This document shows, one piece after another, positions 35,177 to 63,865 of a DNA stretch of 64,000 nt. The DNA lies in the NCBI GenBank assembly GCA_964513075.1, contig CAZELR010000008.1:23876-87875 (forward strand), written 5' to 3'. Under the pieces are notes generated by a model. It ran no database searches. It was not told the DNA's origin and was given only the letters and a program-made list of their open reading frames with translations. This DNA comes from an uncultured Anaerolineales bacterium. GTDB taxonomy: Bacteria > Chloroflexota > Anaerolineae > CG2-30-64-16. How positions within the stretch are numbered: the first letter of the stretch is position 1; the number at the start of each line of letters is the position of its first letter. The position numbers were made by a program, and so were the translations under genes.

Positions 35177-36361
35177 ATGTTTGATTTTCAGATCACCGGC
35201 CGCGACCCGCAGACCGCGGCGCGCACCGGCAACTTCATGACACCGCACGGCAACCTGGCAACGCCTGTATTCGCCCCTGTGGGCACCCAGGCGACGGTGA
35301 AGACACTGACCCCGCGCGATCTGCACCAAGCGGGCGCCACCCTGGTACTGGCCAACACGTACCACCTTTACCTGCGTCCGGGCACCCGCCTGGTGGCGGA
35401 TTTCGGCGGGCTGCACAGCTTCATGGGCTGGACAGGCCCGATGCTGACGGACTCGGGCGGATTTCAAGTCTTCAGCCTGGCCCAAATGCGGAAAGTCGAT
35501 CCAGACGGTGTGACATTTCGCTCGCACATCGACGGCAGTCAACACCGCTTCACCCCAGAAAGCACGATTGCAGCGCAAGAAGAGCTCGGCGCAGATATCA
35601 TCATGTGTTTGGATGAATGTCCGGAGCCGCTAGATCGCCGCTACAACGAGGAAGCATTGGTCCGCACGCACGCCTGGGCCGAGCGCTGCCGGACGGCCCA
35701 GCGCCGGCCCGATCAAGCCCTCTTCGGCATTGTTCAGGGCGGCATCTTCCCCGATCTGCGGGCGGAAAGCGCACGCACCCTGGTCGGCCTGGACTTTCCG
35801 GGCTACGCGGTTGGTGGGCTGAGTGTAGGAGAAACTAAGGAACAGATGTACGCCACCCTGGACCTGGTTATCCCCGAGTTGCCGAGCCACAAACCCCGCT
35901 ACCTGATGGGCGTGGGTGCGCCGGAAGACGTGGTGGAAGGCGTGGCGCGTGGGATAGACATCTTCGACTGCGTGCTGCCGACGCGCGTCGCTCGCAACGG
36001 CGGCCTGCTGACGCGTCAGGGCCGCATCAACTTGCGCAACGCCCGCTACGCCGCCGACCCGCTGCCGGTCGAACCGGGATGCGACTGCTACGCCTGCCAA
36101 CACTTCAGCCGCGCCTATCTCCGTCATCTATTCAAAGCGGAGGAGACGCTTGGCCTGCACCTGGCAACCATGCACAATGTCCGCTTCATGATCCGACTGA
36201 TGGAGGAGATCCGCCACCACGTTACAGCAGGCACGTTTGCCGCATTCCGCGCCGCGTTCCTCGCCGATTACCAATTACCAGATCAAGCCGTGCGCCACGC
36301 GCAAAAAGAAAAACGCAGGCAGCGGCTGGCGAAGGTTGAAGGTCATAAGGTTGAAGGTTGA
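35177..36361 (+). CDS. tgt: Queuine tRNA-ribosyltransferase
   Basis: LVLANTYHLYLRPG, DSGGFQVFSL, and the Zn motif C-x-C-x2-C...H. The C-terminal KVEGHKVEG is encoded by GGTTGAAGG repeats. Confidence 0.9.
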   Translation: MFDFQITGRDPQTAARTGNFMTPHGNLATPVFAPVGTQATVKTLTPRDLHQAGATLVLANTYHLYLRPGTRLVADFGGLHSFMGWTGPMLTDSGGFQVFSLAQMRKVDPDGVTFRSHIDGSQHRFTPESTIAAQEELGADIIMCLDECPEPLDRRYNEEALVRTHAWAERCRTAQRRPDQALFGIVQGGIFPDLRAESARTLVGLDFPGYAVGGLSVGETKEQMYATLDLVIPELPSHKPRYLMGVGAPEDVVEGVARGIDIFDCVLPTRVARNGGLLTRQGRINLRNARYAADPLPVEPGCDCYACQHFSRAYLRHLFKAEETLGLHLATMHNVRFMIRLMEEIRHHVTAGTFAAFRAAFLADYQLPDQAVRHAQKEKRRQRLAKVEGHKVEG

Positions 36362-36415
36362 AGGTCTAGGATTGAAGGTCGCACCTTGCACCTTGAACCT
36401 TGCACCTTGAACCCG
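36336..36415. repeat. Tandem GGTTGAAGGT / ACCTTGAACC decamer repeats
   Basis: Read directly. They overlap the tgt 3' end and the tgt-uppP spacer. Confidence 0.8.
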
Positions 36416-38503: not shown

Positions 38504-40153
38504 ATGAAGAGCGACCTGATCATGGCTGTCAACCAGATCTGCGTGGAAAAAGATCTGCCGCGCGATGTCATCATGGGAGCCATCGAGGAAGCCCTGGTGC
38601 ATGCCTATCGGCGGAACTATGCCAGTAACACAGCAGAGGCCAAGGTGGAGATCGACGCGACCAGCGGCGATCTACGCATCTTCTGCCAAAGAACAGTGGT
38701 AGAGTCTGTGCAAGACCCCATCACCGAAGTCAGCCTGGCCGATGCACGCAAACTTGACCGCACAGCCGAAATCGGAAGTACTGTGCTTGAAGAACGCGAT
38801 CCCGCGGGCTTCGGCCGTATTGCCGCGCAAACAGCCAAACAGGTCATCTTGCAGCGTATCCATGAAGCCGAGCGAGATGCCTTGTACGATCACTTCCACG
38901 AGCGCGAAGGCGAGCTGATTACCGGCGCCGTACAGAACATCGAGTACCGCTCCAATCAGGTCACCATCACGCTGGGCAAGAAGGCCGAGGGCATTTTAGC
39001 TGCCGAAGATCAGCTGCCCAATGATCGTTACCGTGTTGGCCAGAACGTGCGCTGCTTGCTCGCCGAAGTGTCCAAGGGCGCGCGCGGCCCGCAGATTCGC
39101 CTATCGCGCACCCATCGCAACATGCTGCGCCGCCTGCTGGAACGCGAGATCCCGGAGATTTACAACGGCACGGTGGAGATCAAAAGCATTGCCCGCGAGC
39201 CGGGCCAGCGATCCAAAGTTGCCGTGGGAGCCAGCCAGCCCGGCATCGATCCGGTAGGTTCGTGCGTAGGCCTGCGCGGCACGCGCATCCAGAATATCGT
39301 CGATGAATTGATGGGCGAAAAGATCGACATTGTGGAATGGTCGAGCGATGTCCGCCAGTTCATCAGCAACGCCCTGAGTCCTGCACGCCCCACCGACACC
39401 ATCCTGATGGAAGAAGGCGATGTTCGCACCGCAGTCGTGATCGTACCCGATCGCCAACTTTCGCTGGCCATCGGTAAAGAGGGCCAGAACGCGCGCCTGG
39501 CTGCCAAGCTGACCGGGTGGCGCATTGACATCAAGAGTGAAACCGAGTCCAGCACGGAGGGCATCGCCGAGATTAAGCGCCAACAGTTGCAGGCGATGAA
39601 GCAGCGCACGCTTGAAGCTAAGGTGGCCGCGCTGCCGCCGAGCGACGACCTGCTCAGTCGTGCCGAGTGGCTGCTGCAGGAGAAGGATAGGACCTCCATG
39701 ACACTGGACGAGGCGGCGCGCAAGCTGGTCGAAGTCGAAGCCGAAAAGCAAAAGGCGCCAGGCCCGCTCGTGGCCGAAGAGCTGGTTGCGCCGGAGATCA
39801 CGCCCAGCAGCGAGGCCGTTGCCGCGGAGCTCCCCGTCGAATCCGCCGCGGCCGCAGAAGTTGTCGCCGAGACAGCCGCGCCCGAAGCGCCGGCTGCTGA
39901 GGTGCAACCCGAGGCCGAAGTTCAGCCGGCGATCTTTGCAGGGGCGGAAGCCGCGGAGTATCCGGAGTACGCCGGCGAGGTCGAGACCACCGACCAGGAC
40001 GAAGGTGTGGATGGCAAGAAACCGGAGAAACGCGGCAGCAAAAAGGACAGCAAGAAGCGCGAGCTGGTCTTCGACGAGACTCTGGGCCAAGTTGTTGCCC
40101 GGCGCAAGCGCAAGCCCAGCCGCGAGGGCTGGGAAGATCAAGACGAGTATTAG
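38504..40153 (+). CDS. nusA: Transcription termination/antitermination factor NusA with an acidic/Ala-rich C-terminal extension
   Basis: N-terminal domain, S1, KH1 and KH2 are recognisable (ERDPAGFGRIAAQTAKQVI...; GxxG motifs). Confidence 0.9.
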   Translation: MKSDLIMAVNQICVEKDLPRDVIMGAIEEALVHAYRRNYASNTAEAKVEIDATSGDLRIFCQRTVVESVQDPITEVSLADARKLDRTAEIGSTVLEERDPAGFGRIAAQTAKQVILQRIHEAERDALYDHFHEREGELITGAVQNIEYRSNQVTITLGKKAEGILAAEDQLPNDRYRVGQNVRCLLAEVSKGARGPQIRLSRTHRNMLRRLLEREIPEIYNGTVEIKSIAREPGQRSKVAVGASQPGIDPVGSCVGLRGTRIQNIVDELMGEKIDIVEWSSDVRQFISNALSPARPTDTILMEEGDVRTAVVIVPDRQLSLAIGKEGQNARLAAKLTGWRIDIKSETESSTEGIAEIKRQQLQAMKQRTLEAKVAALPPSDDLLSRAEWLLQEKDRTSMTLDEAARKLVEVEAEKQKAPGPLVAEELVAPEITPSSEAVAAELPVESAAAAEVVAETAAPEAPAAEVQPEAEVQPAIFAGAEAAEYPEYAGEVETTDQDEGVDGKKPEKRGSKKDSKKRELVFDETLGQVVARRKRKPSREGWEDQDEY

Positions 40154-40168
40154 TGGATCCGGCGGACC

Positions 40169-40516
40169 ATGCCTAAACCTAAGGGACCACGCCCCAAACA
40201 TGTGCCGCTGCGCACCTGTATCGTCTGCCGCCAGGAACGCGGCAAGCGCGAACTGGTGCGGATCGTTCGCACGCCAAGCGCCGGGGTCCAGGTAGATCCG
40301 ACGGGCAAGCTTGCGGGGCGCGGGGCGTATCTGTGCCGGACGCGCGCGTGTTGGGAAGCAGCCCTGCAAGGCCAGCGCCTGGCCGGGGCATTGAAAGCCA
40401 CTCTGGACGCCGAAGAGCTCGTAGTCCTTCGCGCGTTTGCGGCCTCGCTGCCAGAAGCAGCGGCGGCGCAGCCTTTGGCGGCGGCGCAGCCAAAGGCTGC
40501 GTTGGCTGAATCGTAA
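40169..40516 (+). CDS. ylxR: YlxR-family (DUF448) RNA-binding protein
   Basis: PLRTCIVCRQERGKRELVRIVR...GRGAYLC signature. Confidence 0.8.
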   Translation: MPKPKGPRPKHVPLRTCIVCRQERGKRELVRIVRTPSAGVQVDPTGKLAGRGAYLCRTRACWEAALQGQRLAGALKATLDAEELVVLRAFAASLPEAAAAQPLAAAQPKAALAES

Positions 40517-40756
40517 CGGCAATCGACGACAGGAGATATCGCATGCTGGCGGCCCGACGTTGGCCGATGGGTGGTGGGTGAGGTAAGAGTATGTAGACAA
40601 GGCCGCAGCTCTTTCTCCCGTATTTCTCCGCCTCCCTCGCCGCCCTGGCATCTGATACATGATAACGCACCATATTGAACGATGGGGCAGCTCTGCGTGG
40701 GCCAGTATCATCCACGCGTCGGCCGCAGGCGCCCTTGGCGAGGAGGCATTAGACTC

Positions 40757-43216
40757 ATGGCAAACGAAAACGACAAAGACACTCAGGCCAAAAAACAGCA
40801 ACCCGCCAAGCAGGGGCAACGCCCCGGCAATCAGGGGAAGAGGGACGACGTCCAGCCAAGCAGCAAAGGTGAGCCGGCGGCCGCGCCCAACATGCACCCA
40901 TCACGCCAGCCTGCATCCTTGAAGCCGATGAGCCCGGCTAAGCCAGGCGCCGACCTGGTCAGCAATGCAAACGACCGCCGTCCTACCGAGGGGCGCGGCC
41001 CTGAAACCCGCCAGCCAAGTCGCGACGGCGCCGATGAGGTATTCTCTCAACGCGTCTTCGACCCTGATAACCCCGACACCGTCCCCGTTCGCAGCGGCGG
41101 CGGAGCCAGCCGGCCGGTTGGTGGCCAACGCGGCCGCGACACGGAACGCAGCCTGGGTATCGGTGGCGGTCACAAGCCGCCGAGCCAGGGCAGCCGGCCC
41201 AGCAGCCCCGTGCAGCAAAGCGGTGGCGGACAGTTTCGGAGCGACAGCAACAGCCGGACCGGCCGCAGCCCCGAGCCGCCGCGGCCCGCCTCCCAACCAT
41301 CCAGAGGCAACGCCGGCAGGTCACAGCCCAAGCGGCAGCAACGCATGTCCTCGCACTCACGATCCCAGGATCCCATGGGGATGGCAGGGTCGCAAACCGG
41401 ACCTGCTGTGCCGCGCCAGCCAGCGGCCGCAACTATCTCCGAACTGATCCTCCCGGCTTCGATCACCGTCCGTGAATTTGCTGAGCGAATGCACCGCAGC
41501 CCCATTGAGGTGATCAAGACCCTGATGAACTACGGGATGATGGTGCCCATTACCGAGTCCATCGACTTCGATACCGCACAACTCATCGGTGAGGAGCTCG
41601 GCGTGACTGTCACGGCTGAATCGCTCCCAGAGCCCGAGGTGGCCGAGGTCGTCGAGGAAGCCCCGAAGACGTTGCGGCAACGCATCCTGGCTGCGGAGAA
41701 GGAAGAGAACCTGGTGATCCGCCCACCCGTCGTGACGGTGCTAGGCCACGTGGATCATGGCAAGACCACGCTGCTGGATGCGATCCGCGAGACACGCGTG
41801 GTAGAGGGCGAAGCTGGCGGCATCACCCAGCACATCGGTGCTTACCAGGTAATGAAGAATGAGCGTCTGATCACCTTCCTGGATACGCCGGGCCACGAAG
41901 CATTCACCGCCATGCGCGCGCGCGGCGCCCAGGTGACCGATATCGCGGTAGTGGTGGTCGCTGCGGATGATGGCGTGATGCCCCAGACCAAAGAGGCTAT
42001 TTCACACGTCAAAGCCGCACAGGTGCCCATCATCGTGGCACTGAACAAGATCGATAAGCCACAAGCCAACCCTGAACGCGTCAAACAAGAGCTGGCCGAC
42101 AACGGCGTATTGATCGAGGAATATGGCGGCGACGTCATGTGCGTGCCGGTGTCGGCTAAGTTCCGCCGGGGCATCGGTGATCTGTTGGAGAGCATCCTGC
42201 TGGTCGCGGATATCGAGCCGCAGAAGGCGAACCCAGACGGCGAATGCGTCGGTACGGTGATCGAAAGCCGGCTGGACAAGACGCGCGGCGCCACGGCCAC
42301 CGTGCTGGTGCAGAACGGCACGCTGCATGTGGGCGATGCCATTGTGACCGGCAACACGTATGCCAAGATTCGTGCCATGTACAACGACAAGGGCGAACCG
42401 ATCGTCGAGGCTGCGCCGGCTGCGCCCGTGCAGATTCTCGGCCTGGCTGAAGTGCCTGTGGCCGGCGACACCTTCAAGGTGGTGGCCGACGAACGCACCG
42501 CACGCGGCATCGCCTCCGAACATCAGGCAGAAAAACGGGCTACGACTGCGGCCATCCCGACCCCTGCACTGACGCTAGAAACGATCTTTGCGCAGGCCGA
42601 AGCCGGCAAAGTCAAAGAGCTCAATCTCATCCTGAAAGCCGACGTACAAGGCTCCATCGAGCCCATCGCTAACTCGCTGGAAAAGCTAGGGGACGAGAAG
42701 CTCAAAGTCAAGATCCTGTACCAGGGCACAGGCAATATCAGCGAGAGCGACGTGATGCTGGCCCTCGCTTCCCATGCCATCATCCTGGGCTTTTCCGTCA
42801 GCGTTGACACCACCGCCCAGAGTACGGCTGAGGCCGAAGGGGTGGACATCCGCCTCTACAACATCATCTATAACATCATCGAAGACGTGCAAAAAGCGCT
42901 GACCGGCCTGCTCGAACCGGTATACAAAGAAGTCATTACGGGTCACGCCGAGGTGCGCACGGTCTTCAAGGTCACAAAGGTAGGCAAAGTCGCAGGCAGT
43001 TATGTCACCGATGGCGAGATCAGCCGCAACTCCTCGGTGAGGCTGAAGCGCGCTGGCCAGGTGGTAACCGAAGACAAAATCGCGACCCTGAAGCGTTTCC
43101 AAGAAGACGTCGCCGAAGTCAAGACGGGGTTCGAGTGCGGCATCAACCTGCACAACTTCAACGACTTTGAAACAGGCGACATCTTGGAGACTTACAAAAA
43201 GGAACGAGTGCGCTAA
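40757..43216 (+). CDS. infB: Translation initiation factor IF-2
   Basis: An AGGAGG RBS sits 10 bp upstream of the chosen ATG. There is a low-complexity N-terminus. The GTPase carries [25 protein letters not shown] and NKIDK. Confidence 0.9.
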
Positions 43217-43220
43217 CGCG

Positions 43221-43619
43221 ATGGTAACCCGACGTCAAGAACGCGTCTCAGAATTGCTGCGCGAGGAGCTGAGCATCCTGATCGTAGATCTCATCGACCC
43301 GCGCCTGGCGGACGCCTTGGTAAGTGTTTCTGATGTAGAGGTCTCACCCGACCTCCGCAGCGCGCGCGTCTTCGTACAGCATGTGCTGCCGCCGACATCC
43401 TCACGCCAGGTGCTCTCGGCATTGAAACACGCCGAGAGCTTCCTGCGGCAAGCGCTGACGGAGAATCTGAGCTTGCGCTTCGTGCCCGAGCTGCATTTTC
43501 AGATCGATACGACCGAAGACCGCGCCGGCCGCATCGATGCGCTGCTGGACACCCTTGCAGCGGCGGCACAAACGCAAGATCAGCCGGCGAAGGACAGCCA
43601 GGGTGGAGCCCACCAATAA
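43221..43619 (+). CDS. rbfA: Ribosome-binding factor A
   Basis: RVSELLREELSILI...VSVSDVEVSPDLRSARVF, the RbfA pattern. Confidence 0.85.
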   Translation: MVTRRQERVSELLREELSILIVDLIDPRLADALVSVSDVEVSPDLRSARVFVQHVLPPTSSRQVLSALKHAESFLRQALTENLSLRFVPELHFQIDTTEDRAGRIDALLDTLAAAAQTQDQPAKDSQGGAHQ

Positions 43620-43650
43620 GCGGCGCAAGAACGCTCCATCCGCATCGGTG

Positions 43651-44649
43651 ATGCCAGTATCACCGATGCATTCGTTGGACAAGGTGACCGCCGCGCTGCG
43701 TGGCGCAACCAGCGTGTTAGCCATGTGCCACGTCAACCCCGACGGCGATGCCATCGGCTCGCTGCTGGGGCTGGCGTGGGTCTTGCGCGACCTGCCGCAT
43801 CCCCCTGAGGTCTGCCTGGCGTGCGCTGACCCCATACCGTCTCAGCTCGAGTTCCTGCCGGGGGCCGACGAGATTCGACAGGACGCACCGAAAGGGCCCT
43901 GGGATGTGGTCGTGGGCCTTGATGCCAGCGATCCGGCCCGTCTGGGACCGATCTATACGCCGGCAGCCTATGGACAAACTCCGATCATCGTCCTCGACCA
44001 TCATGTCACCAACCTGCATTTCGGCACCCTGAATTATGTCGATACGCGGGCAGCCGCCACTTCACAAATTGTGGTGGATCTTGCCGATGCGTTGAGTGCG
44101 CCGATCAGCTACAACGCGGCCGTTTGCCTGCTGGCCGGCCTGGTGACCGACACTCTCAGCTTTCGCACCAGCAATGTGACGCCCAAGCTGTTCAACACGG
44201 CCGCTCGGCTCATGGCAACGGGCGCGGATGTTGCAGCCATCACGCAGCGCAGTCTGTACGACCGTCCGGCGGCCATCCTGCGCCTATGGGGCGCCGGGTT
44301 AAGCCAGATGCAGTTGAACGGACACGTTGTTTGGACGGCAATCAGCCTCGCCACGCGCAGTCAACTCGGCCTGACCGGCAATAACGAGAATGGATTGACA
44401 AGCCAGTTGATCAACGCGAGCGAAGCCCAGGTCGCAGCTGTTTTCAATGAAATCGAGACCCACCAGGTCGAGGTAAGTTTGCGCTCCCGGCCCGGCTACG
44501 ATGTGGCCACCATCGCTTTGCACCTGGGAGGTGGCGGCCATCCCCAAGCGGCGGGGTTCACCCTCCCCGGCTCTCTGGATGCGGTACAGGCGCGCGTCTT
44601 GCCCCTATTGGCCGCAGTGGCCGAGGCGAAAAACACCTTACGCCCATGA
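43651..44649 (+). CDS. nrnA: DHH-family phosphoesterase (NrnA-like oligoribonuclease/pAp phosphatase)
   Basis: HVNPDGDAIGS DHH motif and a DHHA1 C-terminal domain with a GGGH motif. Confidence 0.75.
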   Translation: MPVSPMHSLDKVTAALRGATSVLAMCHVNPDGDAIGSLLGLAWVLRDLPHPPEVCLACADPIPSQLEFLPGADEIRQDAPKGPWDVVVGLDASDPARLGPIYTPAAYGQTPIIVLDHHVTNLHFGTLNYVDTRAAATSQIVVDLADALSAPISYNAAVCLLAGLVTDTLSFRTSNVTPKLFNTAARLMATGADVAAITQRSLYDRPAAILRLWGAGLSQMQLNGHVVWTAISLATRSQLGLTGNNENGLTSQLINASEAQVAAVFNEIETHQVEVSLRSRPGYDVATIALHLGGGGHPQAAGFTLPGSLDAVQARVLPLLAAVAEAKNTLRP

Positions 44650-45539
44650 ATGGTATCCTGAATCTGCACAAGCCGTCCGAATGGACCTCTCACGACGTGG
44701 TGGCCCGGGTGCGCCGGCTGCTCAAGATCAAACGCGTGGGGCACGCGGGCACGCTGGACCCGATGGCCACCGGCGTGTTGTTGGTTTGCGTCGGCCAGGC
44801 CACGCGGGTGGCCGAATATTTGATGGCCAGCCCAAAGTCCTATCGCGCCCGCGTGCAATTGGGTATTGTCACCGATACGTATGATGCGGAAGGCGCCGTT
44901 ATGGCCACGGCCCCGGTGCCCGATTTCACACCGGAGAATCTGCGCCGGGCCTTGGCGCAATTTGTCGGCGCCATCCAGCAAACACCACCAGCCTTCTCGG
45001 CCATCAAACAAAATGGCGTCCCTATGTACCGCCGAGCGCGTCGCGGCGAGGCGGTGGAGGTCGCTCCCCGTCCCGTCACGATCCATCGCATCGAGCTGCT
45101 CAATTGGCAGACGCCCTTTCTGGAGATTACGGTGGATTGTGATCCAGGCACCTATATCCGTAGTTTGGCGCGCGATGTGGGCGAAGTCCTGGGCTGCGGC
45201 GCGACGCTGGCCGCGCTGGTGCGTACGCAAAGCGGCGCATTCACATTGGATAGCGCATTGACCCTCGACGCGCTGGCTGAAGAGATCACGGCTGGCCGCC
45301 TCGCCGCCCACCTGCACCCGCTGCGGGCTGCGCTGGATCGCTTCGTGCCTGTGCCTGTCTCTGCGGCCGAAGTCGATGCGCTACGCAAGGGCCAGGCCAT
45401 CGCCTGCTCTGAACCACCACCAGCCACCGGCGGATATGCACTAACAGAGGCCGGCGCGGTCGCCGCCATCCTGGTCTATGATGCCGGCCGAAACGCCTGG
45501 CAGCCCGATAAGGTCTTCTCGGCCGCTGACGCAGACTAG
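44646..45539 (+). CDS. truB: tRNA pseudouridine(55) synthase
   Basis: LNLHKP...HAGTLDPMATGVL catalytic Asp motif. Confidence 0.9.
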   Translation: MNGILNLHKPSEWTSHDVVARVRRLLKIKRVGHAGTLDPMATGVLLVCVGQATRVAEYLMASPKSYRARVQLGIVTDTYDAEGAVMATAPVPDFTPENLRRALAQFVGAIQQTPPAFSAIKQNGVPMYRRARRGEAVEVAPRPVTIHRIELLNWQTPFLEITVDCDPGTYIRSLARDVGEVLGCGATLAALVRTQSGAFTLDSALTLDALAEEITAGRLAAHLHPLRAALDRFVPVPVSAAEVDALRKGQAIACSEPPPATGGYALTEAGAVAAILVYDAGRNAWQPDKVFSAADAD

Positions 45540-45571: not shown

Positions 45572-46972
45572 ATGGAAACCCTCCTTGGCTTCTCTGCCCA
45601 GGCCTTTACCGGCCCCATTTATCTCACCATCGGCAACTTCGATGGCGTGCATCGCGGACACCAGGCGCTGATCAGCGACATGGCCAAGGCCGCGCATGCC
45701 GCCGGCGCCCAAGCCGGGCTGCTGACCTTTGAGCCGCATCCGCTGACCATCCTGCGCCCCGGCGCGACGACGCTGCGCCTGACCAGCAACGAGGAGCGCG
45801 CCAGCCTGTTGGCCGCCCTGGGATTGGATTTTGTACTGGTGCTGCCGTTCACGCGCGCGACCGCAGACACTAGCGCCGCGGAGTTCATGAGCACCCTGGT
45901 CGGCTACGTGCAGCTCAAAGAGTTGTGGATCGGGCCTGACTTCGCCCTGGGCCGCGGCCGCGAAGGGAACGCGGCGCGTCTCACTGCACTGGGGCAAGAC
46001 CTGGGCTACCAGGTGCAAGTCGTTCCCCCTTACCACTGGCTTGGCGAGCAGGTGCGCAGCAGCCGCGTGCGCGCCTATCTGGCTGACGACGGTGCGGTCG
46101 AATCCGCCGCAACGCTGTTGGGCCGACCCTATCAGCTATGGGGACAGGTAACCCAAGGCGCGCGACGGGGCCGGCGGCTCGGCTTTCCTACCGCCAACAT
46201 GGCCGTCCCGGACGACCGGCTGACCCCGGCACATGGCGTCTATGCGTGCTGGGCCTGGCGTGACGCCCGTGAGAACACACAGGCCGGTTACCCGGCAGTG
46301 GTCAACATCGGCGTGCGCCCCAGCTTTGACAACGGCCCGCGCTCGGTGGAGGCATATCTGCTGGACTTCACTGACGATTTGTACGGAGAGATGTTGGGGC
46401 TCAGCTTTATTCAGCGGCTGCGGGGGGAGATGCGTTTCAACGATGTATCAGCGTTGATCAGCCAGATCAAGATGGATGCCGAGGCTGCGCGTGCGCTCCT
46501 GGCCGACCCGCCCGACGACACCGGGAACTGGAAGCTGGAAGCTGGAAGCTGGAAGCTAGAGGCTGGCACATCATTCTGGGGAGAAATCCCCCACACCGCC
46601 GATTGGGCCATCCGTGTGACGGGAGTCTCCCCGCGCCAGCTCTTTGCCCGGACGGCCGCCGTGATGTACCTGCTGCAGGGTGCCGACCCCAGTCAACCGA
46701 TCACCCTGGCGCGCAGCATCGAGGCGGAAGCGGCCAACACTCCCGAGCTGCTGGTGGCATGGCTCAACCGCTTGCTGGTGGGGCAAGATATCGGACAGGA
46801 ACTCTATACGAGATTCGAGATCCACGAAATATCTGAGCGCGGGCTGCGCGGGGTGGCCTACGGCTATCGCGGCACACCTACGCACACGACGATCAAAGCG
46901 GTGACCTATTACGATCTAAGCGCCGCACAAACGGCGGAGGGTTGGGAGGCCATCGTCACGTTCGACGTGTGA
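45572..46972 (+). CDS. ribF: Bifunctional riboflavin kinase/FMN adenylyltransferase fused in-frame to a C-terminal archease domain
   Basis: Residues 1 to about 318 are RibF (GNFDGVHRGH; riboflavin kinase PTAN motif). Residues from about 335 to the end match archease (GEIPHTADWAIRVTG...; IKAVTYYDL...W..IVTFDV). They are joined by a linker encoded by (CTGGAAG)4. Confidence 0.8.
   Translation: METLLGFSAQAFTGPIYLTIGNFDGVHRGHQALISDMAKAAHAAGAQAGLLTFEPHPLTILRPGATTLRLTSNEERASLLAALGLDFVLVLPFTRATADTSAAEFMSTLVGYVQLKELWIGPDFALGRGREGNAARLTALGQDLGYQVQVVPPYHWLGEQVRSSRVRAYLADDGAVESAATLLGRPYQLWGQVTQGARRGRRLGFPTANMAVPDDRLTPAHGVYACWAWRDARENTQAGYPAVVNIGVRPSFDNGPRSVEAYLLDFTDDLYGEMLGLSFIQRLRGEMRFNDVSALISQIKMDAEAARALLADPPDDTGNWKLEAGSWKLEAGTSFWGEIPHTADWAIRVTGVSPRQLFARTAAVMYLLQGADPSQPITLARSIEAEAANTPELLVAWLNRLLVGQDIGQELYTRFEIHEISERGLRGVAYGYRGTPTHTTIKAVTYYDLSAAQTAEGWEAIVTFDV
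46524..46565. repeat. Heptanucleotide tandem repeat (CTGGAAG) x4 plus a degenerate copy
   Basis: Read directly. It lies inside the ribF-archease ORF and encodes NWKLEAGSWKLEAG. Confidence 0.85.
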
Positions 46973-47065: not shown

Positions 47066-47866
47066 TCACACGGCCACGTCCGCCTTGATGCGCGGATGAG
47101 GATCATATCCTTCCAAACAAAAATCCTCGTACTTGAAGTCAAAAATCGACTTAACCTCCGGATTGAGGATCATGTGGGGCAGCGGACGCGGCGCGCGCGT
47201 AAGCTGAAGCTGCGCCTGCTCGATATGATTCAAGTACAGATGCGCGTCACCAGAGGTGTGCACGAAATCACCAGGCTGCAGGCCACAGACCTGCGCCACC
47301 ATCATCGTCAGCAGCGCGTACGATGCAATGTTGAACGGCAGTCCCAGGAACACATCCACCGAGCGCTGATAGAGCTGGCACGACAGCCGTCCCTCCGCCA
47401 CATAGAACTGGAACAACACGTGACACGGCGGCAGCGCCATCTCCTCGATGTCACCCACGTTCCATGCGCTGACAATGAGGCGTCGCGAATCAGGGTTACG
47501 CCGAATCTGCGCCACCACCTCGGCAAGCTGGTCGACCGTCCGGCCGTCGGCCGCCTGCCACGACCGCCACTGCGCGCCGTACACCGGCCCCAGATCCCCC
47601 GCCTGGTCCGCCCATTCATCCCAGATGTGCACGCCCTGCTCCTGCAGCGAGCGCACGTTGGTCTCGCCCCGGATGAACCAGAGCAGTTCATGAATGATCG
47701 ACTTGGTATGCAGCTTCTTGGTGGTCAGCAGCGGGAAGCCGGCGGCCAGGTCGAACCGCATCTGATAGCCGAAGACGGAGCGCGTGCCCGTGCCGGTCCG
47801 ATCGGGTTTGACCGCGCCGTGCTCCAGGATGTGTTGCATCAGGTCGAGATAGGGCTGCACACTCAT
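47066..47866 (-). CDS. thyA: Thymidylate synthase
   Basis: Full-length ThyA, including the RxxGE...catalytic-Cys region and C-terminal ADVAV. Confidence 0.9.
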
Positions 47867-50610: not shown

Positions 50611-50780
50611 CAACCGAGATGCTTCGCTGGTCATTCGCCGCACCTGACCTTGAGCTGTCGACCCACTCGGCATGACAATGAGTGCCGTGTAACTGTCTCT
50701 ACTCCTGCCCAAGCCCCAGGGGGTCAAAGACCGGCCCTAGCGATGGGGATCCCCTTCAACCTTAAACCTTGAACCTTCCA

Positions 50781-56277: not shown

Positions 56278-56312
56278 CCACGCACCACGCACCACGCACC
56301 ACGCAATACGCG
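56278..56312. repeat. Microsatellite (CACGCAC)n
   Basis: Read directly. The same motif flanks the 79-bp repeat array near 61.65 kb. Confidence 0.8.
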
Positions 56313-61182: not shown

Positions 61183-61212
61183 CGTGTTGCGTGTTGCGTG
61201 TTGCGTGTTGCG
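61183..61212. repeat. Microsatellite (GTGTTGC) x4
   Basis: Read directly. It is the reverse complement of the (ACGCAAC)/(CACGCAC)-type repeats at 61652-61721 and 56278-56312. Confidence 0.8.
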
Positions 61213-61217
61213 TATTA

Positions 61218-61447
61218 TGTCATTCTGAGCGGGTTGACGACTCAACTCCCGTTGCGACGAGACCCCAGCGAAGAATCTCGACGCCATAGCGTCTCCTGTC
61301 ATTCTGAGCGGGTTGACGACTCAACTCCCGTTGCGACGAGACCCCAGCGAAGAATCTCGACGCCATAGCGTCTCCTGTCATTCTGAGCGGGTTGACGACT
61401 CAACTCCCGTTGCGACGAAACTCCGGCGAAGAATCTACTCCGGGTGC
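61218..61447. repeat. Tandem array of three 79-bp units (TGTCATTCTGAGCGGGTTGACGACTCAACTCCCGTTGCGACGAGACCCCAGCGAAGAATCTCGACGCCATAGCGTCTCC)
   Basis: Read directly. Units begin at 61218, 61297 and 61376, and the third is diverged. Microsatellites flank both sides. Confidence 0.85.
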
Positions 61448-61720
61448 GTCACCGCGGCCCACCAAACTGAGCGGAGCATCCTGAGCGGAGCACCGCAGTG
61501 CGCAGTCGAAGGGTGCGGAGCGGTCTCCTGTCCAAGGCCGTATCCTTCGACTGGTCGCTATTCGTCAAGCACGTTGGCTCGCAGACCCGCTCAGGATGCT
61601 CGCGCCCCGGAACCGAAACACACCCATTCTGATCTGGATAATTGAGCATGTCACGCACCACGCACCACGCAACGACCCGCAGGTCGCCGCAATACGCAAT
61701 ACGCAGTACGCACCACGCAC

Positions 61721-63865
<2,145 letters not shown>

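Follow-up and report, generated by a model that had tools for sequence, protein, structure and literature searches.

A conserved fusion of the flavin enzyme RibF with archease in Chloroflexota, with a heptanucleotide array in its linker

Archease is, to our knowledge, known almost only as an activator of the RNA ligase RtcB, which is its sole demonstrated client. The guanylylation of RtcB and the adenylylation of flavin mononucleotide (FMN) are both metal-dependent nucleotidyl transfers that release pyrophosphate. In human archease, residues D51, K156 and D178 hold both an extra Mn2+ ion and the gamma-phosphate of GTP, and guanylylation of RTCB depends on them (PMC10944509). The genes form a classical archease-rtcB operon (PMC4604427, PMC10944509), and Chloroflexota related to the organism discussed here likewise have archease directly upstream of rtcB. 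RibF, the riboflavin kinase/flavin adenine dinucleotide (FAD) synthetase, is known in its type I form from C. ammoniagenes (2X0K), S. pneumoniae (3OP1) and T. maritima (1MRZ). The two families are joined in a single gene in a stretch of 64,000 nucleotides from an uncultured Anaerolineales bacterium of the Chloroflexota (contig CAZELR010000008.1, assembly GCA_964513075.1), referred to below as the window. The comparisons below show a real fusion that is conserved and maintained by purifying selection. The fuller account, which we hold with somewhat better than even confidence, is that it is a genuine, old and selectively maintained fusion of neighbouring genes in Anaerolineae/Caldilineae-type Chloroflexota, with a working archease and a repeat in the linker that is secondary. 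Both families are known and the architecture is already present in public databases under the RibF name, and a literature search found no paper joining archease with riboflavin kinase, RibF or FAD synthetase. The gene and its parts are as follows.

45572..46972, + strand: ribF::archease fusion open reading frame (ORF), 466 aa plus stop (ORF list and translation, three Pfam domains)
45611..46066, + strand: FMN adenylyltransferase (FMNAT) module, FAD_syn, residues 14-165, with GNFDGVHRGH and SSR motifs (Pfam PF06574, E 2e-42)
46118..46501, + strand: riboflavin kinase module, Flavokinase, residues 183-310, with PTAN motif (Pfam PF01687, E 1e-39)
46502..46576, + strand: interdomain linker, residues 311-335, disordered and hypervariable among orthologues
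46524..46566, + strand: heptanucleotide tandem array (Tandem Repeats Finder, TRF: period 7, 6.3 copies, 89% match)
46557..46559, + strand: TAG in the +1 frame directly past the array, which would end a 326-aa RibF if one unit were lost or two gained
46577..46969, + strand: archease domain, residues 336-466 (Pfam PF01951, E 7e-22)
46592-46603, 46895-46897 and 46964-46966, + strand: archease key residues by motif position, namely HTAD with D344, K442 and D465

The ORF is uninterrupted and encodes RibF (FAD_syn and Flavokinase), a 25-aa linker and archease, with both parts complete. A protein that is 100% identical over its 466 aa (P0001) is recorded on a 103,898-bp NCBI contig. A first-pass annotation made from the letters alone had read a complete RibF running into a complete archease, and this is borne out by three full Pfam domains in one open frame across 45572-46972; the archease motifs that it had picked out (PHTADWAIRV, KAVTYYDL and FDV) are all found in the translation. 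RibF membership is supported by the NCBIfam equivalog NF004160 (313 bits against a cut-off of 295), and the archease match spans profile positions 1-136 of 136 in PF01951 with 78.6 bits against a cut-off of 25. Modules, motifs and arrangement are those of the type I RibF proteins and the usual position after truB is kept, whereas the window protein has 155 extra C-terminal residues made up of linker and archease. The archease is of the same fold as its relatives (4N2P; human ARCH-RTCB, 8ODO/8ODP), with a full Pfam match and with the HTAD aspartate, the KA(V/I)TY lysine and the C-terminal aspartate conserved. In contrast to them it is the C-terminal domain of RibF and not a free protein of ~140 aa, it is not followed by rtcB, and it is co-inherited with ribF across a deep radiation.

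The best 120 homologue clusters were taken from a search of 5.8 billion proteins, and all 120 carry PF06574, PF01687 and PF01951, with identities of 58-83% and lengths of 447-510 aa. These clusters derive from NCBI, JGI, ENA and Logan assemblies and from many samples, and the named carriers, which are metagenome-assembled genomes of Chloroflexi/Anaerolineae and of Chloroflexota, are annotated merely as RibF; GCA_026389845.1 is one assembly with the fusion. A metagenome scan with the archease part as query yielded 80 loci (given L numbers here). Among the 35 closest, at 60-77% identity, RibF and archease lie in one frame in 31/31 loci with enough upstream DNA. L102 has TAG twice in frame (2896-2898 and 2917-2919) where its otherwise identical twin L104 has GAG in both places, and these were set aside as real nonsense codons since, given the twin, they are probably sequencing errors. 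In the 36th locus, L119, a conserved Trp codon has become TGA (1970-1972) where the archease domain begins. When the proteins are clustered at 50%, the fusion clade of the window falls into one full-length representative. A more distant cluster has the same architecture and includes Candidatus Amarolinea dominans (Chloroflexota, Caldilineales; GCA_016707735.1), at ~50% RibF identity, whose downstream gene order is related to that of the window: thyX (thyA in the window), CBS, era and Vut_1 with one extra gene between. Four more RibF-archease clusters occur among the 150 nearest archease relatives, the rest of which are mostly free proteins of 130-150 aa.

The ratio of nonsynonymous to synonymous substitution rates (dN/dS) in seven orthologue pairs is 0.14-0.25 for the archease part and 0.14-0.22 for RibF, at dS values of up to 1.2-1.7. 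The archease part has thus been constrained for a long time, and as strongly as an essential enzyme. Across 120 fusion proteins G21-H30 (GNFDGVHRGH) and S163/S164/R165 are invariant or nearly so, PTAN (P206-N209) is invariant, and in the archease part D344 is invariant and K442 and D465 nearly invariant. D344 (HTAD), K442 (KAVTY) and D465 (FDV) are the residues of the window protein that match human D51, K156 and D178, with D465 assigned to D178 by its C-terminal position alone; alignment to P. horikoshii archease 4N2P places the HTAD and KA(V/I)TY motifs in register. An AlphaFold2 model built on 120 sequences has a mean predicted local distance difference test score (pLDDT) of 90.2 and a predicted template modelling score (pTM) of 0.89. 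Foldseek matches its RibF part to 2x0k, the C. ammoniagenes FAD synthetase (target-normalised TM-score 0.83), and to 3op1, with target-normalised scores of 0.83-0.90 for the two, and also to riboflavin kinase modules; the archease domain matches 8odo_B, 4n2p_A and 8btx at 0.67-0.72. RibF keeps all its catalytic motifs and would make FMN and FAD as usual. Because purifying selection on the archease equals that on RibF, the archease module most likely still works, where it would position nucleotide and metal for a nucleotidyl-transfer enzyme.

The fusion gene is the last of a translation-factor operon, and the neighbouring features are given here.

38504..45539, + strand: upstream genes on the same strand, nusA, ylxR, infB, rbfA, DHH/DHHA1 (nrnA-like) and truB (Pfam scan of window ORFs)
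47066..47866, - strand: thyA, convergent downstream gene (Pfam Thymidylat_synt, E 5e-129)

The string nusA-ylxR-infB-rbfA-DHH-truB-ribF::archease closes at the fusion gene, thyA follows head-on and there is no rtcB next. The upstream order is kept in the fused locus L081 as well as in the unfused loci L138 and L141. The last two carry DHH-truB-ribF-archease-rtcB as separate genes (Pfam; RtcB E ~1e-167), and L139 has ribF, archease and rtcB in the same order (tblastn and RtcB motifs). Separate ribF and archease genes, in that order, were found in L120, L123, L126, L132, L137-L142, L148, L154, L155, L173 and L174. These unfused relatives are distant Chloroflexota with ~40-55% RibF identity (GCA_054030815.1 and GCA_038198935.1 are assemblies of the unfused kind), and at their junctions the two genes overlap by ATGA or GTGA (L138, L148) or by 8 and 14 nt (L154, L155, L174), or have a spacer filled with heptamer arrays (L126, L141, L142). 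In L123 (~236-247) a TAA stands directly before the ATG, and in L173 (880-910) a TGA, seven codons and an ATG follow one another, with ribF and archease in the same frame in both loci. Several ribF/archease junctions are therefore one base change away from a fusion, L173 and L123 each by a single substitution. The RibF and archease trees, built roughly by neighbour joining and carrying no support values, place the same lineages together and recover the fused clade of the window as monophyletic in both, with fused and unfused forms interleaved near its base, which implies more than one fusion or fission. Since distant Chloroflexota have ribF and archease as separate genes that overlap or abut, the fusion is seen to have arisen by the joining of neighbours. 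By this comparison the ancestral string ran ...rbfA-nrnA-truB-ribF-archease-rtcB with ribF and archease translationally coupled, and the two were joined when the stop codon of ribF was lost or the frame shifted slightly. In the fused clade rtcB is no longer adjacent.

The linker peptide NWKLEAGSWKLEAG is encoded by four perfect CTGGAAG units followed by degenerate ones. The first-pass annotation had ascribed it to (CTGGAAG)4; the perfect core indeed occupies 46528-46555, with degenerate units flanking it, and TRF agrees on a period of 7. Matches to two consecutive units number three in the window against 0.02 expected from shuffles. As 7 and 3 have no common factor, all three reading frames of the array give the identical heptapeptide, so that an array of this kind is tolerated in any frame and only its net length counts. 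Residues 322-332, which are encoded within the array, form the sole segment of at least three residues with a pLDDT below 50 in the AlphaFold2 model. Linker length ranges from ~12 to ~50 aa in the ~107 homologues in which it could be delimited by an approximate regular expression, and some linkers of relatives differ by 7 aa, which fits gains or losses of three units at a time with the frame kept. CTGGAAG is also the linker unit in L081, L083/L084, L086, L091, L095, L098 and L116/L117 and also in the frameshifted loci L163, L164 and L166. Other loci carry array-wide variants of the unit, GTGGAAG in the closest relative (L082), CCGGAAG x4 in L111, CTCGAAG in L087 and L165 and CTAGAAG in L105. 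The array thus turns over fast in unit sequence and copy number while the frame is kept.

Many orthologues, including early-branching members, have no repeat, and the Amarolinea-type fusions likewise have a short linker that is free of it. For this reason the array seems to have expanded later, within a short linker that was already there, and then to have undergone concerted turnover; it appears to be secondary and not the cause of the fusion. The idea that the linker is a captured intergenic heptamer spacer, suggested by the arrays between the separate genes of L126, L141 and L142, was downgraded on the same ground, namely that the early and the Amarolinea-type fusions are repeat-free. An RNA-level role for the array was rejected because its folding energy is not in excess (z +0.39), no Rfam family matches anywhere in the window and no complementary array lies nearby. 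A separate archease made from an internal start was likewise discarded, as none of the start codons ATG, GTG and TTG stands in frame between the array and HTAD. Related arrays stand near the fusion gene in L083 (1999-2065), L097 (3405-3432 and 3455-3487) and L091 (757-780 and 920-955). In several orthologues CTGGAAA or GCTGGAA arrays, whose units belong to the family found in the linker, lie right past the stop of the fusion gene, along with complement arrays, so that the segment coding for archease is bracketed by related heptamer arrays.

The first-pass annotation had offered three explanations for the junction, a slipped-strand switch, a recent fusion and an assembly artefact. Recency is excluded by orthologues whose synonymous sites are saturated (dS up to 1.2-1.7) and by Amarolinea at ~50% identity, all of which share the fusion, and close relatives with separate genes and no repeat, which the annotation had named as evidence against its reading, were not encountered, separate genes being confined to ~40-55% identity. 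That the repeat caused an error in assembly or sequencing and so a false read-through, or that the archease part is a dead remnant, must be regarded as very improbable. Repeats are prone to such errors and broken versions do occur in some public assemblies of relatives, but the same architecture recurs in many samples and in assemblies made independently and drawn from four sources (120/120 clusters), and also in 31/31 metagenome loci, which excludes an artefact, and orthologues without any repeat are fused too; decay is contradicted by the dN/dS of 0.14-0.25 and the invariant functional residues. The third explanation is a contingency locus in which gain or loss of a single CTGGAAG by slipped-strand mispairing would toggle between RibF-archease and RibF only, and thus switch archease on and off within the population. 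The annotation was right that a one-unit change shifts the frame. In silico, loss of one unit gives a RibF-only product of 326 aa that stops at the TAG at 46557-46559, gain of one gives 423 aa with an out-of-frame tail, and gain or loss of three units stays in frame. The locus resembles simple sequence repeat (SSR) contingency loci in that its unit is not divisible by 3 and lies inside a reading frame; the array also follows the essential RibF part, so that loss of a unit would leave a 326-aa RibF intact, close relatives differ in copy number and unit sequence, which marks the array as mutable, and the TGA in place of a Trp codon in L119 indicates that variants lacking archease can at least be assembled. 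However, there are only four perfect units, no on/off copy-number variants were seen among relatives at the assembly level, all informative loci (31/31) and all clusters (120/120) are in frame, the out-of-frame stop that follows the array is not shared by L081, and many orthologues stay fused though the array is missing from them. A comparable case is the heptanucleotide phase variation of HMW1A in Haemophilus influenzae (PMC8262952), which likewise has a 7-nt unit whose change would alter downstream expression; here the tract is short, no on/off polymorphism was found and the array is missing in many fused orthologues. Four RibF-length cluster members (P0291, P0295, P0297 and P0302) were considered as phase variants and rejected, because neighbouring genes are broken too and the indels that can be aligned are of 1-2 nt. 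They come from the ENA assemblies ERZ25039462 and ERZ25039459 (loci L163-L166), where small indels break up truB or a downstream radical-SAM-like gene as well in three of the four loci; the indel is 1 nt in a homopolymer in L164 and 2 nt in L166, none is of 7 nt, and in L163 and L165 the arrays are rearranged so that indels are not scorable. A switch is accordingly possible in principle and unsupported, as good assemblies are all in frame and the look-alikes carry 1-2-nt indels, and we consider it improbable. Independently of this question, the two ENA assemblies split the fusion gene into a RibF-sized and an archease-sized ORF, and assemblies split in this way give rise to spurious 'separate' RibF and archease entries for the fused clade in public protein sets.

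Where rtcB lies and what else archease is fused to bear on the choice of client for the archease domain. Many free archease genes in the sample have rtcB directly after them, and the archease-rtcB operon partnership is not seen in the window or in the fused loci L081-L117. Three further fusions were found, in all of which archease is likewise C-terminal and joined to the product of the upstream gene: MobB::archease (306 aa, 44 cluster members, Anaerolineae/Chloroflexota; 5001-5921 in L167-L169), FMNAT-only::archease, which is FAD_syn without the kinase module (323 aa; L170, 5001-5972), and PCMT::archease (359 aa, protein P0225). Unlike the window fusion, those with MobB and FMNAT only have linkers without a heptamer array and are directly followed by rtcB, which shows that fusion to an upstream gene is compatible with an RtcB partnership. 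The preferred reading, which has roughly an even chance of being right, is that the archease domain would serve, from a flexible tether and in trans, an RtcB encoded elsewhere. It is favoured because RtcB is the sole demonstrated client, because sister lineages keep rtcB even beside a fused archease and because the fusion partners are varied. Several observations weigh against this reading and the wider account to which it belongs. No RtcB motif was found in the six-frame translation of the 64-kb window or in the fused loci L081-L117. The ribF-archease pair is kept without an adjacent rtcB in both fused clades and in the unfused L174, where truB-ribF-archease is followed by an epimerase gene and not by rtcB, and this persistence hints at a tie of archease to RibF itself. 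The whole-chain pTM of 0.89 over 466 aa is higher than expected for a free-floating archease, and the archease domain may, to judge by the model, be docked on RibF. The CTGGAAG unit persists, almost free of synonymous changes, in orthologues that have reached saturation at synonymous sites, so that simple neutral microsatellite turnover is not a full explanation. Lastly, the trees behind the account of the origin are only rough neighbour-joining trees with no support values.

A tentative alternative is that the client is the adenylyltransferase module of RibF itself. Archease would then have been co-opted to serve the FMN adenylyltransferase, in cis or within a RibF oligomer, in place of RtcB; it would position ATP and metal, aid the release of pyrophosphate and, as part of the enzyme itself, activate FAD synthesis or set its specificity. 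Such a co-option, which seems unlikely on present evidence, would account for a ribF-archease linkage that outlives the archease-rtcB linkage in both fused clades and in the unfused L174 without adjacent rtcB, and for the several apparent origins of the fusion (the window clade, the Amarolinea-type clade, L162 and FMNAT-only::archease). It is also in keeping with the FMNAT-only fusion, which drops the kinase module yet still joins FMNAT to archease, with a fixed position of archease on RibF as the pTM of 0.89 would suggest, and with the mechanism of archease (PMC10944509), the reactions of RtcB and FMNAT both being metal-dependent nucleotidyl transfers that release pyrophosphate. MobB::archease links archease to another nucleotide-cofactor pathway and, by analogy, hints at a similar role in molybdopterin guanylylation. 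On the other hand, no biochemical precedent is known for archease acting on any enzyme of the RibF FMNAT fold, the FMNAT and MobB fusions directly precede rtcB, which makes fusion to the upstream gene look opportunistic, and PCMT, which is also found fused to archease, is not a nucleotidyltransferase. That archease was recruited in these Chloroflexota as an activator of the RibF FMNAT, and hence would be a general aid to nucleotidyl transfer that puts nucleotide and metal in place, is rather doubtful, and service to an RtcB in trans is retained as the preferred reading.

The linker repeat belongs to a genome-wide class of repeats and sits in a disordered segment of the protein. Ten of the 16 window arrays with at least three copies have a period of 7, those other than the linker array being the following.

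36331-36365, 36381-36413, 50753-50777, 56278-56305 and 61183-61213: period-7 arrays
61652-61671, 61688-61712, 63249-63289 and 63319-63358: period-7 arrays, continued

Six of the period-7 arrays in the window lie between genes, two at a boundary of two genes and two within what is predicted to be the 5' part of a single long ORF, with one weak match inside thyA; the ribF-archease linker array is the only strong and clearly translated one. Units recur within the window, GAAGGTT being the same unit as GGTTGAA and CCACGCA the same as CACGCAC. The rate of period-7 arrays is 15.6 per 100 kb in the window (10 arrays), 27.7 in the fusion-clade loci (42 arrays in 151 kb), 20.4 in the more distant archease loci, where they are concentrated in the ribF|archease|rtcB group, and 0.5 in other bacteria (4 arrays in 849 kb from 80 bacteria). 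Period-7 arrays are thus ~30-50 times commoner in the window and related Chloroflexota loci than in the 80 other bacterial loci. Intergenic heptamer repeats are known in cyanobacteria, Beggiatoaceae and some Bacteroidetes, with no mention of Chloroflexi (PMC4679880), and a literature search found no paper describing heptanucleotide tandem repeats in Chloroflexi. The cyanobacterial STRR (short tandemly repeated repetitive) sequences and the TAACTGA repeats of Beggiatoaceae (PMC4679880) likewise consist of 7-nt tandem units in many arrays that are mostly intergenic and fall into recurring unit families; here the phylum and the units are different and the linker array is translated as a protein linker. 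Abundant intergenic arrays of this period may ease frame changes and stop loss and so promote such fusions.

Two further observations concern other parts of the window. Two minus-strand ORFs leave a gap of 560 nt that contains the segment 61183-61719. This segment has 2.8 copies of a 79-bp unit (61218-61436, 97% match), flanked by reverse-complement heptamer arrays (61186-61216 against 61652-61719), which are 86-91% complementary and ~440-480 nt apart. ARAGORN calls a tRNA-Met at 35386-35461 (+) and a tRNA-Thr at 41126-41209 (-) inside predicted coding ORFs, the second within infB on the opposite strand; these are probably false positives, as Rfam finds no tRNA in the window.

Overall, archease in these Chloroflexota is co-inherited with the flavin enzyme RibF, first as a translationally coupled neighbour and then as a domain of the same protein, on which purifying selection is strong; the annotation as RibF hides the archease part from users of the databases. 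The strong excess of heptanucleotide arrays is a trait of these Chloroflexota, and the linker shows one route by which such an array enters a protein. The pairing has outlasted the departure of rtcB, which implies either that RtcB is activated by way of a housekeeping enzyme encoded in the translation-factor operon or that archease has a second nucleotidyl transferase as client. If co-option by RibF were true, archease would not be a cofactor of RtcB only, and the fusion would then be of greater interest.

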